Shown here in pieces: positions 2,526-60,420 of a stretch of DNA of 64,000 nt. The DNA comes from Leucoraja erinacea. Its lineage: Eukaryota. Below the pieces are notes generated by a model. That model made no database searches and had not been told where the DNA came from. It saw nothing but the letters and a program-made list of their open reading frames with translations. A program made the translations under genes and the position numbers. Location: positions 21,390,001 through 21,454,000 of the forward strand of contig NC_073407.1 in the NCBI RefSeq assembly GCF_028641065.1. The letters are read 5' to 3'. Within the stretch, counting starts at the first letter, position 1. Each line of letters starts with the position of its first letter.

Positions 2526-3060
2526 TCCCCACTTGTTTCCCTGCACGGACAAAAGTCACAATATGCAAGCAGCATGTTATCAAAACATTTTCAACACCTT
2601 CTTTGCTACAGTTGTTGTTCAGTTCAACAGGAGTGGCTTTCCCCTAATGGATACAAAGTCCTGGAGTAACAGGTCAGGCAGCATCTCTGGAGAAAATGGA
2701 TAAGTGACGTGGCGAGGACTCCTTCCTATGGAAAAAAAGGCTCGGAGGTGGAGGAAGAACTCTACATCATGGCGGGCCTGGAACTCCTAGAAGTGGGGGA
2801 AGAGGGGCATATAGGCAAGGCCTCTGTTGAGGACAAACCGTTCTGTATCAGAAAGAGGGAGGTTAGGGAAACACAAGGGCGCGGGCTGGGATTTGAGGGG
2901 TGGAGGGAGACTTGGGTAGGTAGTGTAGGTGGAAGAATGATGGAGGCTGAGAGGGGAGGTGGTTTCTCTGGCATTCCCCTAATGTTTAATTTGGTATCAT
3001 AGTTCCTGTATAGCCCAGATCTGATGACAATAGTGTATTGTTCACAGCAATACTCTAATG

Positions 3061-5720: not shown

Positions 5721-5960
5721 GAGGTCCTGGTCCTGCTTCTTGATAAGGGAGCGCCATGTTGGTGAGGTCTCGCCTCTTGATAAGGGAGCGCCATGTTGGT
5801 GAGGTCTCGCCTCTTGATAAGGGCGCGCCATGTTGGTGAGGTCTCGCCTCTTGATAAGGGAGCGCCATGTTGGTGAGGTCTCGCCTCTTGATAAGGGAGC
5901 GCCATGTTGGTGAGGTCTTGCCTCTTGATGAGGGCGCGCCATGTTGGTGAGGTCTTGCCA
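5708..5960. repeat. 37-bp minisatellite, about 7 units, each with a YY1-like GCGCCATNTT motif
   Basis: Unit GCGCCATGTTGGTGAGGTCTCGCCTCTTGATAAGGGA; motif starts at 5708, 5751, 5788, 5825, 5862, 5899, 5936. Confidence 0.95.
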
Positions 5961-7061: not shown

Positions 7062-10000
7062 TCAGGATTTAGGTTGATCTCCAGAGCTCAGGTGGCCCTT
7101 AGAAATGTCTCCCTCAGCTGAATCTCCAGGTTTATCACTTTTAACATCTGTCATAATTTCCAGAGAGCCATCACCAATCACTCGATGAACCTTTTCGCCT
7201 CTTGCAGCCAATATTTCTTCAATATTCCTGATGGCATTAGCAAAAGAATAAAATTAAAATGGTGCTTTAACGATCAAAGAAACTTCGAGAGGGGTTAGAA
7301 GGTGAAGGACAATTGAACCACATTAAGTTCAGATATTTAAACGCGATACTCTCATTTTATATTTAACAGTTAACTGAAAACTTGGTTTGCAGAACAGAGT
7401 AAAGTTGCAGTTCAGCTTGAGGAACGACATTGTAGCGTACCAGTTCCAGAGAAAAAGTCCAATGTCCGCAATGAGGAGTTGAGAGAAATAGGGAAGGTTA
7501 TGGCCTTATAAAAGTCTATTTATAGTTGACAATAAGTAGAAATACAGACAAGGTTACTTGAAAACAGTTAATTTTTCATGACAATTTACTAAACATACCC
7601 AGGTGATTTTGTGCAAATCTGGTCATTGCATTTCAATCACTCCTGGCTATTTTTGTTTTACAGTTCATCGCTATCCCATTTAGGAAAAAGAAGTAACAGA
7701 AGAAAACTTTGCAATTGATGGAGAGTGAAGATGCCAATATTGAGCCCCACTAATTTGCTGAAATTGTAAGTAAAATTACACTATTTTAACCAAACAACAT
7801 GGAACTTACTTTTTTCCTTCTAGGTCTGAAAACCATCCCAAATTGTCTGCTATAATATGATGATTGTTGCACCCAGAACACTTTACAATAACCACTCCAT
7901 TGTGATAAGCAAGCTTGGAAATCCTCTTTGCTGATCTTGCATTGCACACCTGAAACAAGATAAAATATCCCTACATTGTTAACAGGAAATGCCCAAGTCA
8001 CCGCTTACATTGTCTTTATGCCTGATTCTATTTTCCATTCTATACTTGACAACAAACCTGTCTTCCCACACACAACCACCCATTCCCCTCATCTTGTGCT
8101 CTTTTCCAAATAAACACTGGATATTGAACACAGGCCATTCAACCTCTAATTGCCCTGTATAAACTCAAAGGTTAAAGAAGAATTTCCCCATATCCCCACA
8201 AATGTCCCCATATTATTAATGTAGATCACAACAGAGTCGTTGTGCGCATTGCAGTGGTGCAGATAGTAGATCTGCTGCCTCACAGCACAACAGCCAAGAT
8301 TCAATCTGACCTACAGCAAAGATCTTTGACCTACAGTGCCTGTATGTATGGAGTTGCATGTTCTCCTGGTGACCACATGGGTTTCCTCTGACTGATCCAG
8401 TTTCCTCCCACATCCACAAAACACAGAGGTTGGTAGAATAATTGTGTGCGCAGATGAGTGGTAGAACCGAGGAAGGGATTCATAGAAAAGATTTGGTTAG
8501 AATTAGTGTATGTTCAATGATATAAACGATGTGCCAAATAGCTTGTTTCCGTGTTGTAACTTTCTATGATAGTCTTCCCTGGCTCTCAAAGTATAGGGTG
8601 ATTTCACTAAAGGTCACTGGAGCGTAGATCCGCACCCACGTGACCAAAATTCTCAAGTGGAGGACACTCGAGGGTTCGGTACATGTTAGTGGATGGGAAA
8701 AAACGCATTTTCCCACCCGTTAAAAACATAGAAAACGGCGAGGTTGTGAGCTGCAATTTACTGTGCCAGTCGGGGTGACCGTGAGGCACAGCTACCTAGA
8801 TTTACAGGAAAAAAAAAGATAGCAAGTAAGGTAAATTCAAGAGGGAACTGAAGGTGCCAAACCGGCGGAAATGAACAGCCGACATTTGCCGTGGATATTT
8901 ACAGGTCCAAAATATCGGGAATTATCGCGTTTGCTCGCTGAATTTCATCAAAAGTAAGGCATTATTAACTTACTTTTGATAAATTCAGCGAGCAAACGCG
9001 ATAATTCCCGATATTTTGGACCTGTAAATATCCACGGCAAATGTCGGCTGTTCATTTCCGCCGGTTTGGCACCTTCAGTTCCCTCTTGAATTTACCTTAC
9101 TTGCTATCTTTTTTTTCCCTGTAAATCTAGGTAGCTGTGCCTCACGGTCACCCCGACTGGCACAGTAAATTGCAGCTCACAACCTCGCCGTTTTCTATGT
9201 TTTTAACGGGTGGGAAAATGCGTTTTTTCCCATCCACTAACATGTACCGAACCCTCGAGTGTCCTCCACTTGAGAATTTTGGTCACGTGGGTGCGGATCT
9301 ACGCTCCAGTGACCTTTAGTGAAATCACCCTATTCCAATTAAACCCAGTAGAGTTGCTGCCTTACAGTGCCAGAGACACAGGTTCATTCACAACCTCAAG
9401 TGGTGTCTGTGTGGAGTTTGCATGTTCTCTCTGCGACCACGTGAGTTTCTTCTGGATGTTCTGGTTTCCTCCCATTTCCCAAGATTTGTGGATTTCTAGC
9501 TTGATCGGCCTCTGTAAAATTTGCCCTAGTGTGTAAGCAGTGGATGCGAGAGTGGGATAACATAACTGTATCTGTGCAGGTGGCAATAATAAACCAATAT
9601 CTGCACATCGTTCCAATTTGGAAGAGCACCATGCGATCACCTGGATAATCCTGTGTAAACTCCACACAGACAGCAACTAAGATCAGGATGAAACCCTCCT
9701 TGCTGAGGCTTTACCGGGTTAATATCTGCTTTCCCCCGCCTGCCAGGTTACTCTCTGGAGACAATAATTTATCCACACTAGTTGCGACTCCCTGGCTACA
9801 GCGGGAGAGTGAACTACCCTCCGGGTTAGTAGCTCACTTTGCAGGTGTAGATCAACTGATAGTGTGTGGCAGAGGCCTGGGTTGCGCCCACGGTGGCCCG
9901 CTGTCCCCGGCCGGTCCGGAGACCTCTGCACTGCACCGCGAACCGCCCGCCTTCGCGACCAGCACCGGCATGGAAAACCGGGCGCGGCCATCCAGAGGCC

Positions 10001-10065
10001 GCCGCCCGCAGCAGCCGAGCGGTCGCTGACCTCCCGAAACGAGCAAACGTGAGGCCCAGGCTCAT
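7062..10065 (-). CDS. DNLZ: DNL-type zinc finger protein (mitochondrial Hsp70 escort protein HEP1/Zim17), 3 exons, 177 aa
   Basis: Exon 1 10065-9838 (228 nt, Arg-rich presequence ending HYQLIYTCK); exon 2 7949-7810 (140 nt, [46 protein letters not shown]); exon 3 7227-7062 (166 nt, [16 protein letters not shown]...QPKS*). All introns GT-AG with consistent phases; CxxC...CxxC and ADNL motif present. Confidence 0.95.
8317..8328. mobile_element. 12-bp hAT TIR-only micro-element
   Basis: CAAAGATCTTTG flanked by 8-bp direct repeat ACCTACAG; termini match the 408-bp element at 59918-60325. Confidence 0.75.
8593..9333. mobile_element. About 740-bp fold-back (palindromic) MITE in DNLZ intron 1
   Basis: Arms ATAGGGTGATTTCACTAAAGG... 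and ...CCTTTAGTGAAATCACCCTAT are near-identical (same 60-aa ORF on both strands, 8607-8789 and 9137-9319); about 10-nt spacer near 8959-8968; TA at both ends. Confidence 0.85.
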
Positions 10066-10165
10066 CTCTTCCACGTAGGCCGCAGCTCGGTTGCTATGGA
10101 AACTCGAGCATGAGTCCCGCTCTGCGTCGCTTCCGGATAATCATCAGTCGAGTCACGTGGCACTG
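10066..10165 (-). promoter_or_regulatory. DNLZ proximal promoter (CpG island edge)
   Basis: RFX X-box GTTGCTATGGAAAC 10090-10103, ETS CTTCCGG 10130-10136 and E-box GTCACGTGG 10152-10160 lie directly upstream of the DNLZ ATG. Confidence 0.7.
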
Positions 10166-10198
10166 ACCAAGGTACAATACCTCTGTTCAAATGCAAAC

Positions 10199-10223
10199 CA
10201 AATATCCTATAGTAGGATCTTTG
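10199..10223. mobile_element. 25-bp hAT TIR-only micro-element
   Basis: CAAATATCCTATAGTAGGATCTTTG flanked by 8-bp TSD ATGCAAAC. Confidence 0.8.
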
Positions 10224-10841
10224 ATGCAAACATCGAGTAGAAAACTGATATCAACATTAACAGCGGGTCAGGCAGCATCTCAAGTTCAAGTGAGTTTATT
10301 GTCATGTGTCCCTGTATAGGACAATGAAATTCTTGCTTTGCTTCAGCATACAGAACATAGTAGGCATTTACTACAAAACAGATTAGTGTGTCCATATACC
10401 ATAATATAAATATATACACACATGAATAAATAAACTGATAAAGTGCAAATAACAGATAATGTGTAATTAATAATCAGAGTTTTGTCCGAGCCAGGTTTAA
10501 TAGCCTGATGGCTGTGGGGAAGTAGCTATTGAAGTAGCTCTGAAGAAGGGTCTCGACGTCACACATTCCTTCTCTCCAGAGATGCTGCCCGACCCGCTGA
10601 GTTATTCCAGCATTTTGTGTCTAGTTGCAATTATTATGTGGTTTCCCTTTGGTTAGAAAATAACCTGTCACTCTGCAAGCCACAGCCCAGCACTAAATGT
10701 CTGAATTAGTCTTGTCCAACACATTAGATAGACACAAAAAGCTGGAGTAACTCAGGAGACAGGCAGCATCTCTAGCGAGAAGGAATGGGTGACGTTTCGG
10801 GTCGAGACCCTTCTTAAAACATTGTCTTGCTCGGTTCCTCC

Positions 10842-10863
10842 GAAAGATGCTATAGGATCTTTG
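10842..10863. mobile_element. 22-bp hAT TIR-only micro-element
   Basis: GAAAGATGCTATAGGATCTTTG flanked by 8-bp TSD GTTCCTCC. Confidence 0.75.
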
Positions 10864-11554
10864 GTTCCTCCTGCTCCTGGGATTGAGAAGCTTATTCTCA
10901 AATAACAAAAGGATGCATCCCTCCAGGAAGCCACGTGAGTGGTAATGGTTAAGAAGGAACTGCAGATGCTGGAATAATTGAAGGTACATAAAAATGCTGA
11001 GGAAACTCAGCGGGTGAGGCAGCATCTAAGGAGCGAAGGAAAAGGCGATGTTTCAGGACGAGACCCTTCTTCTGACTCATGGTGCGCTATGCACAAAAGC
11101 ATTGTGCCAACACTGCCATGTGTAGGGGAAGTAACTATGATAGTGGTTTACATGGAAGATCAACACAATGCTGGATGAACTAATTGGGACACAGCATCTC
11201 TGGAGAAATGAATGGGTGATGTTTTGGGTCGAAACCCTTCTTCAGACAGTCACAGGAGAGGGAGACTACAAATATAGATGGGTATGCTGTGAAAAGGACA
11301 GATCAAAGCAGACTTAGATCAAGGAAATGTAGAAAATTAATCAGGAGGACAGTGAAACTAGTCGGAGAACTAGGGTGGGGGAGGGACAGAGAGAAGGAAA
11401 GCAATGGTTATTTGAAATTAGAGAAATCAATAACCATACCGCAAATATGATGTGTAAAAGCACAATTAACAATGCACAATTCTGTCCTGCTGAGTTACTC
11501 CAGCATTTTGTGTATCTTCTGGTTTAAACCAGCAACTGCAGTTCCTTCCTACTA

Positions 11555-12300
11555 CATTTGCTAGCAGACATGGAACAAAGAGTAGGGATTAACAGGTCCC
11601 TTTCAGAATGGCAGGCAGTCTGGTGGGATGTCGCAATCTCGGTGCTGAGACCGCAGCTATTTACAATATACATTAATGATTTAGATGAAGGAATTAAAAG
11701 TAACATTAGCAAATTTGCAGATGGCACAAAGCTGGGTGGCAATGTGAACTGTGAAGAGGAGGCTATGAGGATGCAGGGTGACTTGGACAAGTAGGGTAAG
11801 TGGGCAGATGCAGTATAATGTGGATACATGTGAGGTTATCCACTTTGGTGGCAAGAACAGGAAGGTAGATTATTATCTGAATGGTGTCAGGTTAGGAAAA
11901 GGGGAAGTACAATGAGACCTGAGTGTCCTTGTACCTCAGTCACTGAAAGTAAGCATGCAGGTAAAGCAGGCCTTCATAACGAGAGGAGTTGAGTATAGGA
12001 GCAGAGGTCCTTCTGCAGTTGTACAGGGCCCTGGTGAGACCATACCGGGAGTATTGTGTGAAATTTTGGTTTTTCACACGGAGAGTTGTGAATTTGTGGT
12101 ATTCTCTGCCTCAGAAGGCTGTGGAGGCTGATTCACTGGATGCATTCAAAAGAGAGTTAGATATGGCTCTTAAAGATAGCGGAGTCAGGGGATCTGGGGA
12201 GAAGGCAGGAACAGGGTACTGATTGGGGATGATCAGCCATGATCACATTGAATGGCAGTGTTGGCTCGAATGGCCTACTCCTGCACCTATTGTCTATCTA
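11555..12300 (+). mobile_element. Degenerate CR1/HER1-type LINE fragment
   Basis: RT motifs LFTIYINDLDEG...ISKFADGTKLGG and the C-terminal LQLYRALVRP...FFTRRVVNLWYSLPQKAVEA. Confidence 0.8.
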
Positions 12301-13622
12301 TCTATAATAATAATAATAATCGCAATAATACAAATTTTAGTTTATGGGCGCCTTTCAAGAGTCTCAAGGACACCTTAAAAAAATTTAGCAGGTAGAGGAA
12401 TAAACAGGTAAGGGGAATGATTAAATAAATAGTAGAGGGACATGACTAGTACACAGAGTATTGTGTTGACAGAATTCAATACAAAACACAATATGAGACA
12501 ATTAATGCCCAAATGAAAAGGGAGGGGGACGTGGGGCTAAGGATAGGCAGAGGTGAAGAGATGGGTCTTGAGGCGGGACTGGAAGATGGTGAGGGACACA
12601 GAAGCGGTAAAAGTTGGTCAGGAATCTGGGGGGACAAGTGGGCTTTCTTGAGCCTACGGATCAGTTGGGGGAGGGAGTGCCAGAGCCTGGGAGCTGCCCT
12701 GGAGAAGGCTCTGTCCCCAAAACTGCGGAGGTTGGGCTTGTGGATGGATGACTGAGGAGAAGTCGACAATAATCTCCTTGTCGGCGGATGTGGTCAGGTG
12801 CTGGATCTCATCCCTGTAGGCTGATCTGTTGTCGGACCAGTCCTACTGAGGGTTGGTATATGGGGGAGAGGACACCTTACAAAAATTTAGAGGTCATGTA
12901 AGGGGAATGAAATAAAATAGTAGAGAGATGACTAGTACACAAAGTGGGGGGGGGGGGGGGGGGGATAGGGGGGCAGATGGGTGGAGGGCTTTGTGTGTGA
13001 CACAGAATCCGGATCAGTTCGTCTGCTTTGAACTGTCCTTTTCACACTAGTTTCCCCCTCAGTCTGAAGAAGGGTCTCATCCCAAAATGTCACCTATTCC
13101 TTTTTCCCATTTCCAGAGATGCTGAGTTACTCCAGTATGTGTCTATCTTCACACATCCTCAGGAAGGCCGTCAGCATCCATAAAGACTCCTCACACCCTT
13201 GTAACGGACTGTTCGAACTACTTCCCTCCGGCAGACGTTACAAGGCCTTCTACGCCCGAACCTCCAGACTCAGAAACAGCTTTATTCCCAGAGCTATAGC
13301 GGCTCTGAACCGGCCCTGCTGAGTGCTCCCCCGCCCCCCTCCCCCCCTGGACTGTCTCCCTCGGATGGTCACATCACACAACTTATTTATTTATTTTACT
13401 TTTATTTTACATCGGTTGGAAGCTGCATACTAAATCTCGTTGCATTGATGTGCAATGACAATAAAGATATATTATTATTATTATTATTCTGTGTAAACAT
13501 TGTGTTTTTGTGTGTGCCCTTTATTATTGTATCGCTGCTGACGTATCATTTCACTTGCACTTTTTGTGCAATGTGACAAATAAACCGTTGTATTGTATTG
13601 TATTGTATTGTACAGTCAGTGG

Positions 13623-13651
13623 CAAAGATCTTATATGCTAGAAGATCTTTG
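13623..13651. mobile_element. 29-bp hAT TIR-only micro-element in the RPL7A promoter
   Basis: CAAAGATCTTATATGCTAGAAGATCTTTG flanked by 8-bp TSD GTCAGTGG (13615-13622, 13652-13659). Confidence 0.8.
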
Positions 13652-13659
13652 GTCAGTGG

Positions 13660-13755
13660 GGGCGCGGTCCCTTTAAATTGAAGCCACGCGAGAACTGGCG
13701 CGGGTATTACCGGGCATGCGTGGCTTCTCCGCCCTCTTTCTATGCCCCCGCCGCC
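13660..13755 (+). promoter_or_regulatory. RPL7A promoter and 5'-TOP start
   Basis: CpG island 13660-14230; oligopyrimidine CTCTTTCT at about 13734 just before the exon-1 ATG; YY1-like GCCGCCATTTTG in intron 1 (about 13950). Confidence 0.75.
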
Positions 13756-20473
<6,718 letters not shown>

Positions 20474-43870: not shown

Positions 43871-45484
43871 CAGTGCCCTCCATAATATTTGGGACAAAGA
43901 CCCATCATTTATTTATTTGCCTCTGTACTCCACAATTTGAAATTTGTAATAGAAAAAAAAATCACATGTGATTAAAGTGCACATGGTCAGATTTTATTAA
44001 AGACCATTTGTTTTCATTTTGGTTTCACCATGTGGAGATTACAACTGCGTTTTGTACATAGTCCCCCCCCCACCATTTCAGGGCACCATAATGTTTGGGA
44101 CACATGGCTTCACAGGCGTTTATAATTGCTCAGGTGTGTTTAAATGCCTCCTTAATGCAGGTGTAAGAGAGCTCTCAGCACCTAGTCTTTCCTCCAGTCT
44201 TTCCATCACATTTGGAAACTTTTATTGCTGTTTATCAACATGAGGACCAAAGTTGACCCAATGAAAGTCAAATAAGCCATTATGAGACTGAGAAAAAAAG
44301 CATAAAACTGTTAGGGACATTGGTCAAACCTCAGGCTTACCCAAATCAACTATATTGGAACACCATTGGAACACTGGTGAGTTTACTAATCACAAAGGGA
44401 CTGGCAGGCCAAGGAAGACCTCCACAGCTGATGACAGAAGGATTCTCTCTATAATAAAGAAAAATCCCCAAACACCTGTCCAACAGATTAGGAGTCAGGT
44501 GTGGATTTGTCAATGACCACTGTCTGCAGAAGACTTCATGAACAGAAATACAGAAGCTACACTGCAAGATGCAAACCACTGGTTAGCTGCAAAAATACGA
44601 TGACCAGGTTACAGTTTGTTAAGAAGTACTTAAAAGAGCAACCACAGTTCTGGAAAAAGTTCTTGTGGACAGATGAGACGAAGATTAACTTATATCAGCG
44701 TGATGGCAAGAGCAAAGTATGGAGGTGAGAAGGAACTGCCCAAGATCCAAAGCACCTCATCTGCGAAACGTGGTGGGGGTGTTATGGCCTGGGCATGTAT
44801 GGCTGCTGAAGGTATTGGCTCACTTATCTTCATTGATGATACAACTGCTGATGGTAGTAGCATAATGAACTCTGAAGTGTATAGACACATCCTATCTGCT
44901 CAAGTTCAAACAAATGCCTCAAAACTCATTGGTCGGCGGTTCATTGTACAGCAAGACAATGATCCCAAACATACTGCTAAAGCAACAAAGGAGTTTTTCA
45001 AAGCTAAAAAATGGCCAATTCTTGTGTGGCCAAGTCAATCACCCGATCTGAACCCAATTGAGCATGCCTTTTATATGCTGTAGAGAAAACTGAAGGGGAC
45101 TAGCCCCCAAAACAAGCATAAGCTAAAGATGGCTGCAATACAGGCCTGGCAGAGCATCACCAGAGAAGACACCCAGCAACGGGTGATGTCCATGAATCGC
45201 AGACTTCAAGCAGACATTGCACGCAAAGGATATGCAACAAAATACTAAACGTGACTACTTTCATTTGCAAGACATTGCTGTGTCCCAAACATTATGGTGC
45301 CCTGAAATGGGGGTGACTATGTATAAACATTAATTTCTACATGGTGAAACCAAAATGTATAAAAATGGCCTTTATTAGAATTTGACCACATGTGATTTTT
45401 TTCTATTACAAATCCCAAATTGTGGAGTACAGAGTCCAATAAATAAATGATGGGTCTTTGTCACAAACATTATGGAGGACACTG
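43871..45484 (+). mobile_element. Full-length but inactivated Tc1-like DNA transposon
   Basis: TA TSDs and long TIRs starting CAGTGCCCTCCATAAT. Transposase from about 44240 with stops and frameshifts: LWTDETKINLY, GGGVMAWACM, QQDNDPKHTAK...WPSQSPDLNPIE (DD34E). Confidence 0.93.
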
Positions 45485-59534: not shown

Positions 59535-60420
59535 CCAGGGTTCAGGGTCGCAGTGTTAAGGGTCAGGGTCGCAGTGTCAAGGGTCAGGGTCGCAGTGAAG
59601 GGGTCACAGTGTCAAGGGTCAGGGTCGCAGTGAAGGGGTCACCGTGTCAAGGGTCAGGGTTTCAATGAAGGGGTCACAGTGTCAAGGGTCAGAGTCACGT
59701 TGTCAAGGGTCAGGGTCGCAGTGAAGGGGTCACAGTGTCAAGGGCCGGGGTCACAGTGTCAAGGGTTAGGGTCGCAGTGAAGGGGTCACAGAGTCAAGGG
59801 TCAGGGTCGCAGTGAAGGGGTCACAGAGTCAAGGGTCAGGGTTTCAATGAAGGGGTCACAGTGTCAAGGGTCAGGGTCATGGTGTCAAGGGTCAGGGTCG
59901 CAGTGAAGGGGTCACACCAAAGATCCTATAGCGAGCAAGATAGGTCCCTCGACGAAAAAGACGTAGTGCGGTCATGGGCAGATTCATGGGGAATTTTTGG
60001 CCCCATTTCCGTAACCGGCTTCCGTCTCCGCACCAAAGATCCCGTAGCGGAGCAAAGATACTAGTGCGGAGACGGAAACCGGTTACGGAAACATCCTCGT
60101 AAAAATAAAAGTTATTTGGGAAAAATCTTCTCATTTTCAGAATTATAATTTATTAACACAAACTGTTCCCCTGCAACGTTGATTACACTGCGAGTCGGGT
60201 CGGGTCGGGGGGCGGGTTACTGAAATGGATGAAAAAAAGGCCCACGTTCCGCTCCGTTGCGTACTACACGTCAGCCCATTGCATTTAGAAGGAGTGGTCT
60301 ATCTTGCTCCGCTATAGGATCTTTGGGTCACACTGTCAAGGGTCAGGGTCACAGTGAGGGGGTCACAGTGTCAAGGGTCAGGGTCACAGTGAGGGGGGTC
60401 AGGGTCACAGTGAGGGGGGT
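59535..60420. repeat. G-rich minisatellite (GTCAAGGGTCAGGGTCGCAGTGAAGGGGTCACAGT-type units) interrupted by a hAT MITE
   Basis: Repeated 16-19-bp subunits on both sides of 59918-60325. Confidence 0.9.
59918..60325. mobile_element. 408-bp hAT MITE, parent family of the micro-elements
   Basis: TIRs CAAAGATCCTATAGCG(G)AGCAAGATAG / reverse complement; 8-bp TSD GGTCACAC (59910-59917, 60326-60333). Confidence 0.9.

Follow-up and report, generated by a model that had tools for sequence, protein, structure and literature searches.

The stretch of DNA considered here is a window of 64,000 nucleotides from the skate Leucoraja erinacea (contig NC_073407.1, positions 21,390,001 to 21,454,000 of the forward strand). 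It contains the DNLZ gene and the 5' end of what is probably the RPL7A gene. Inside and between these genes lie four very short insertions, the stubs E1 to E4, each made of the fused tips of the terminal inverted repeats of a 408-bp non-coding element found elsewhere in the window. The stubs are probably excision scars of a family of P-superfamily-type DNA transposons, of which the 408-bp element is likely a non-autonomous member. The features are as follows.

8309 to 8336, no strand: E1, a 12-bp stub (8317-8328) between 8-bp duplications at 8309-8316 and 8329-8336.
10191 to 10231, no strand: E2, a 25-bp stub (10199-10223) between 8-bp duplications.
10834 to 10871, no strand: E3, a 22-bp stub (10842-10863) between 8-bp duplications.
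13615 to 13659, no strand: E4, a 29-bp stub (13623-13651) between 8-bp duplications.
59910 to 60333, no strand: the 408-bp non-coding element (59918-60325), with 8-bp duplications and terminal inverted repeats.
60006 to 60091, no strand: internal hairpin of the 408-bp element, with 28-bp arms around a repeat-like copy of the terminus.
7815 to 10065, minus strand: DNLZ, recognized from its translation and a zinc-finger exon at 7815-7958 (Pfam zf-DNL, E 2e-22), with a CpG island at 9701-10200.
ATG at 10065, minus strand: putative first exon of DNLZ.
13725 to 13758, plus strand: 5' end of RPL7A, with a pyrimidine tract and an ATG at 13756 followed by a splice donor.

The stubs had been described in an earlier note on this DNA as micro-elements of the hAT superfamily with perfect 8-bp duplications. 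They were found again, at the same coordinates, when the window was scanned for inserts of 8-599 bp that carry these termini, with up to 3 mismatches in 14, and stand between copies of an 8-bp direct repeat. Exactly five structures were detected in the 64 kb, namely the four stubs and the 408-bp element. A relaxed scan (inserts of up to 60 bp, up to 2 mismatches in the duplication) yielded nothing in the window beyond the stubs. All 40 approximate dinucleotide shuffles were without a stub, against the four observed. For the 16-nt terminus 0.29 matches are expected and 7 occur, all of them in E2 to E4 and the 408-bp element, and none of 100 shuffles reached at least 7. A chance origin of the stubs is excluded by the empty 40 shuffles and the excess of terminus matches.

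Each stub can be fitted as a left prefix plus a right suffix of the repeat of the 408-bp element, in agreement with the earlier claim that the stubs carry its termini and that each has a distinct junction. E1 consists of arms of 8 and 8 nt that overlap in a 4-bp GATC palindrome, with 0 mismatches. Its host is a short interspersed element (SINE) in the putative intron 1 of DNLZ, 1.7 kb into the gene. Exactly 20 bp (12 + 8), that is the stub and one copy of the duplication, are missing at this site in five of the six aligned SINE paralogs; the sixth, with 19 bp, aligns poorly. E1 is, therefore, a true insertion. The arms of E2 are 14 and 11 nt long, with 1 mismatch and without microhomology, although a 22-bp join followed by a 3-bp duplication would give the same structure; the stub is located about 135-146 bp upstream of the putative DNLZ start codon. 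E3, at 787 bp from this codon, is composed of arms of 7 and 15 nt (1 mismatch) or is joined at a CTATAG palindrome (2 mismatches). E4 is positioned about 85-100 bp upstream of the RPL7A pyrimidine tract. Its arms are 13 and 16 or 14 and 15 nt long, with 4 mismatches and a T at position 9 in both, and it is likely to come from a variant subfamily. Symmetric joins at the self-complementary words of the first 17 nt predict lengths of 12, 20, 22, 24, 28 and 30 bp, to be compared with the observed 12, 22, 25 and 29 bp.

All eight skate arms are 16 nt or shorter, compared to the repeat of 27 bp. This has P = 0.025 if breakpoints are uniform within the repeat, and arms so short have P = 0.0035 per stub if breakpoints are uniform within the element. 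Derivatives of the 408-bp element of intermediate size were not found in the window. Collapse independent of a transposase, in which the terminal repeats pair with each other in replicating DNA and the loop is lost by deletion or nicking, is quite unlikely as a source of such structures. The 408-bp element does have long terminal repeats and an internal hairpin, and E2 to E4 fold as hairpins (z -3.6 to -5.6). However, folding is a trivial outcome of fusing inverted repeats, and the hairpin energies say nothing on origin. Furthermore, collapse predicts arms of up to the full 27-bp stem, or total loss by way of the duplication, whereas the skate arms end by 16 nt.

The terminal inverted repeats of the 408-bp element match at 26 of 27 bp with one 1-bp gap, and continue imperfectly to about 34 bp. 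The element is the sole intact member of the family in the window, in one copy. Its hairpin is read as a nested or rearranged end of the element. At distances of 57 and 48 bp from its ends the element has a 9-bp word in inverted orientation, with one mismatch; this was considered as a candidate internal 10-bp transposase (THAP) site apart from the repeat, and by a rough estimate chance can yield it. The whole element is enclosed by a GGGTCA-rich minisatellite at 59535-60420.

The same type of stub recurs in a second host. Metagenome contigs were scanned with the 17-nt terminus, a pattern that forces one arm to 17 nt. The scan gave 21 loci, of which six are fused stubs at five distinct sites (L012 and L017 represent one site), with lengths of 30, 33, 33, 32 and 41 bp. 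The flanks look like animal DNA, three of six frames having Pfam matches (a KH exon of BICC1 that passes the cut-off and, weakly, Ig and reverse transcriptase), and the genome is different from that of the skate and richer in AT. At L001, L010 and L020 the stubs are flanked by 7-bp duplications that match at 6 of 7 positions, each with a chance probability of about 0.002; at a length of 8 bp only 1, 5 and 3 of the 8 positions agree. To consider these as 8-bp duplications that have lost the last base requires about twice as many changes, and this possibility was rejected. The insert in L020 resembles its own end junction. The unselected partner arms are 12, 8, 15, 11 and 15 nt long without gaps, two of them reaching about 16 nt if small deletions are allowed. 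Thus all 13 unselected arms of the skate and the second host are 16 nt or shorter, whereas the arms selected by the pattern are 17 nt in four of five cases and 20 nt in one, with 18-19 nt possible in three. No intact ends are present among the six stub loci, a ratio that is not a count since repeats assemble poorly.

None of the other 33 hits (15 metagenome, 6 viral and 12 prokaryote) has a partner end within 70 bp at up to 2 mismatches in 10. The 6 viral and 12 prokaryote matches, obtained with the 16- and 17-nt patterns, were taken as chance. One metagenome locus, L002, looked like an element end and turned out to lie inside a bacterial reading frame, and a 22-nt terminus pattern returned no metagenome loci. 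That the two hosts have 17-20 nt of the terminus in common is no proof of horizontal transfer.

The nine stubs of the two hosts all differ in sequence, which argues against mobility, and in this small sample they lack the many uniform copies that characterize a family of MITEs (miniature inverted-repeat transposable elements). That they are micro-elements inserted as they stand is scarcely credible, although both termini are present in each stub and a clear duplication flanks seven of the nine. The stubs contain neither the inner part of the repeat nor an internal site, and the Drosophila P element needs more than 100 bp per end (PMC1562414). The earlier note had offered a choice between internal collapse and mobile micro-elements. 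The immobility implied by the former has stood. Excision of the P type, a third explanation that the note lacks, fits better than both.

Contigs of four related organisms (X1, X15, X3 and X19) were compared over 9340-13900, a stretch that has E2 to E4 inside it and E1 outside. Near DNLZ the differing letters number 4 in 894 for X1, 7 in 651 for X15, 13 in 653 for X3 and 16 in 648 for X19. E2 is spanned in all four relatives. The alignments have 22, 16, 16 and 12 gap letters, too few for an empty site, which requires 33, and E2 is on this comparison older than all splits among the four relatives. E3 is free of gaps in X3 and X15; none of the pieces listed for X1 and X19 spans it. This sharing of E2 and E3 means that these stubs have been inherited across skate lineages. 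X1 has an identical E4 and X15 one of the same length. The match of X3 starts at 13644, within E4, so that the E4 allele of X3 differs. The match of X19 begins exactly at the right E4 duplication (13652), with 47 unaligned letters before it, and a single copy of the duplication would set the start of this contig at most 1 base from that of X15. The E4 site thus appears to be empty in X19, the most distant relative, with precise excision as the alternative.

In their anatomy the stubs are like the published scars of P element excision. The Drosophila transposase makes a documented 17-nt staggered cut: it cleaves one strand at the edge of the element and the other 17 bp further in, within the 31-bp repeat (PMC7776569). 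The donor break is then mended by homologous repair or end joining, and new insertions prefer promoters and nearby sites (PMC7776569). In sequenced P junctions the two 8-bp copies persist, and between them as much as 17 nt from each repeat, fused at microhomologies, by blunt joining or through templated inserts (PMC2895639). All nine stubs have this anatomy, and we read them as probable P-type excision scars. P elements of Anopheles and Drosophila have repeats of 27-32 bp, and P-MITEs show an enrichment in the 5' flanks of genes (PMC1562414, PMC3698922); the 27-bp repeat of the skate family fits this range better than the 10-25 bp of hAT. Duplications of 7 or 8 bp occur in Galileo, a member of the P superfamily (PMC4168063), and the duplications found here fall within this range, being 8 bp at five of five skate sites and 7 bp (6 of 7 positions) at three of five second-host sites. 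The P target consensus is a 14-bp palindromic motif (PMC2577343). The five skate target sites match its core at 18 of 40 positions (P 0.003), an agreement confined to the outer positions.

The scars would have arisen in four steps. Insertion of an element would have created the 8-bp duplication, as is evident for E1 from the SINE paralogs and as the apparently empty orthologous site suggests for E4. The transposase would then have cut with a long stagger in each terminal repeat, by about 17 nt as in Drosophila P to judge from the arm lengths, and two non-complementary repeat tails would have stayed on the chromosome. End joining would have trimmed the tails and fused them at GATC or CTATAG, bluntly, or with a small templated insert; the junction shapes are seen directly, and the repair pathway is what they suggest. 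The resulting scars, devoid of the inner repeat, would be immobile and were passed on in the skate lineages. Any clustering at promoters would reflect the preference for open chromatin known for P.

The hAT label of the earlier note was an interpretation, probably a wrong one, derived from an 8-bp duplication that is common to P elements as well. The note also assumed that excision footprints do not normally retain both repeat tips, whereas P excision keeps up to 17 nt of each (PMC2895639, PMC7776569). The stubs could nevertheless be products of a hAT or other edge-cutting 8-bp family if gap repair were aborted after a few bases per end had been copied from the sister chromatid and the ends were then joined. 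We consider this unlikely. It would be compatible with the 8-bp duplications of the skate, with the target half-sites, 6 of 10 of which carry T at position 2 or A at position 7, and with a terminus that starts with CA, as in hAT ends. It gives, however, no reason for a ceiling of about 17 nt in 13 of 13 unselected arms, and does not account for the missing intermediate sizes. In its favour, deleted copies are known to arise when synthesis is aborted and the ends are joined, as described for P (PMC2895639, PMC4168063). The description of hAT elements, with terminal repeats of 10-25 bp and duplications of 8 bp (PMC3942097), is narrowly missed by a repeat of 27 bp, imperfect to about 34; the 8-bp duplication is present at the skate sites, but the duplications beside this terminus in the second host measure 7 bp. 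Furthermore, hAT enzymes, reported to cut at the edge of the element, form the hairpin in the flank (PMC5499845), and therefore retained repeat tips are not expected from direct end joining.

A transposase family of uncharacterised chemistry, neither P nor hAT, might also cut with a long stagger inside the repeats. The stub termini have no link to a transposase, some arms in the second host might be 18-20 nt long, and in a literature search the 14-nt terminus was not met in the available text of any transposon paper, its one match being a paper on gut microbiota. We nonetheless find such a family very improbable. A long stagger is reported only for P in the parts of the literature consulted on transposase cutting, and the 7- or 8-bp duplication, the 27-bp repeat and the apparent promoter bias all fit P. 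KolobokP was ruled out by its TTAA-type duplications. A supposed similarity to the start of Anopheles P termini was not confirmed, the 5-letter word occurring 0 times in the available text of PMC1562414.

The proximity of the stubs to promoters, pointed out in the earlier note, was borne out as far as position is concerned, E2 and E3 being situated by DNLZ and E4 by RPL7A. All four stubs are within 2 kb of a promoter anchor (P 0.009), and their confinement to 5.3 kb of the 64 kb has a P of 0.002, calculated post hoc. This clustering is suggestive only.

DNLZ is located in the Surfeit cluster between a MED22 candidate and RPL7A, with SURF1 and PPP1R26 beyond (1550-28900). The name MED22 is provisional. 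The order of these genes differs from that of mammals. SNORD24 and three SNORD36 copies are intronic in the RPL7A region, and the one RPL7A exon tried had no Pfam match. The Pfam scan placed SURF1 and PPP1R26 in the DNLZ region too; the PPP1R26 exon is 95% identical to that of Amblyraja radiata and at most 78% identical to those of other rays and sharks. At 5750-5960, at the CpG island of the minus-strand gene that we assume to be MED22, there are tandem units of about 36 bp, each containing a word that we take to be a YY1 site. The putative intron 1 of DNLZ also contains, between E1 and E2, a perfect foldback at 8593-9333 with two 353-bp arms that are 100% complementary, a 35-bp spacer and TA or AT flanks. 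It is probably a young non-autonomous DNA element of a family other than that of the stubs. A fragment of a DDE_3 (Tc1-type) transposase at 44634-45080 (Pfam E 6e-8) is unconnected to the stubs.

Several observations weigh against the excision-scar reading. No autonomous element, transposase or intact end was found by the terminus-pattern scans of metagenome, viral and prokaryote contigs, so that membership in the P superfamily is suggested by structure alone. In the target sites, enrichment is seen at the outer GT..AC positions (12 of 20, P 0.0008) but not at the four inner ones (6 of 20, P 0.30). Such outer positions are shared by some hAT elements, and the target sites do not separate P from hAT. 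The scan pattern itself imposed one 17-nt arm in the second host. One arm of L011 follows the skate repeat over 20 nt, and at three sites two letters past position 17 agree, so that the stagger may exceed 17 nt or some arms may come from synthesis. No clear duplication exists at two of the five second-host sites (L011 and L012/L017); beside the L011 stub (2950-3006) an offset near-repeat takes the place of a clean duplication, and 3 more inverted letters adjoin the stub. Within 9657-10309 there are 16 additional letters in X3 and X15, a net gain of 10 in X1 (interpreted as +16/-6) and none in X19, and this length variation could be at E2; a SINE piece near 9690-9715, shorter than its paralogs, is another candidate place. 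As for the promoters, the 408-bp element is 6.6 kb from the nearest anchor, and its inclusion (four of five) raises P to 0.034. We picked the five anchors ourselves, in one window, and the choice matters because the CpG scan gave 12 segments. Finally, excision by zebrafish THAP9 resulted in larger flanking deletions than with the fly enzyme in cell assays (PMC10983969).

If the stubs are P-type scars, a vertebrate P-type family has completed germline insertion and excision with a Drosophila-like geometry, and its scars constitute a fossil record of the manner and the places in which such elements moved. By a plain pattern search the scars could be counted throughout the genome, making stagger length, target preference and promoter load testable. 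Repeat masking would likely miss such relics of 20-40 bp at promoters, and as irreversible shared characters they could be used in skate phylogeny. A bolder proposal would be that one P-superfamily lineage, its terminus conserved over 17-20 nt, had full germline mobility in skates and in a distant animal (with 8- and 7-bp duplications, respectively, and possibly horizontal transfer), and that its scars are spread over the genome and are commoner than intact copies. Such scars would report the cutting geometry of a vertebrate P transposase, its promoter targeting and the spectrum of germline end joining, and would provide a general sequence test by which unclassified 8-bp elements could be assigned to P or to hAT. 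This is conceivable, but we lean slightly against it.

Among known elements, the 408-bp element resembles the Anopheles P-MITEs (PMC1562414) and BuT5 (PMC3698922), which are non-coding, a few hundred bp to 1 kb long and flanked by duplications of about 8 bp. In Anopheles the repeats of the master elements are 27-32 bp long and the MITEs are enriched in the 5' flanks of genes (PMC1562414). Unlike the skate family, these insect elements have known P masters, and scars are unmentioned in the available text. Zebrafish Pdre and THAP9 represent P-like elements with 8-bp duplications in a vertebrate, but the repeats of Pdre2 are 13 bp long and of another sequence, and in the cell assays THAP9 gave, besides the larger deletions, no forward transposition (PMC10983969). 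Galileo has 7- or 8-bp duplications in one family and a GT..AC target consensus, but its repeats are very long and its hosts are insects (PMC4168063). MITEs of the hAT type are likewise short, non-coding and flanked by 8-bp duplications, and differ in their 10-25-bp repeats and the hairpin on the flank (PMC3942097, PMC5499845).

The skate family may already be catalogued in Repbase or Dfam, under P or hAT. A search of literature titles, covering few subscription journals, retrieved none dealing with P scars of natural origin in a vertebrate, and none about P elements of cartilaginous fish. The closest counterparts of the stubs are the junctions of the Drosophila P{wa} element, which keep both copies of the duplication and up to about 17 nt of each repeat, overlap the stubs in size, and show the same short microhomologies, blunt joins and templated inserts (PMC2895639). 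These junctions are induced laboratory products of a known enzyme, whereas the skate stubs are natural, inherited across lineages and of another terminal sequence, and their enzyme can be deduced only from the structures. The scar type is thus already known from Drosophila experiments, and the skate case is likely to be its extension rather than a new system.

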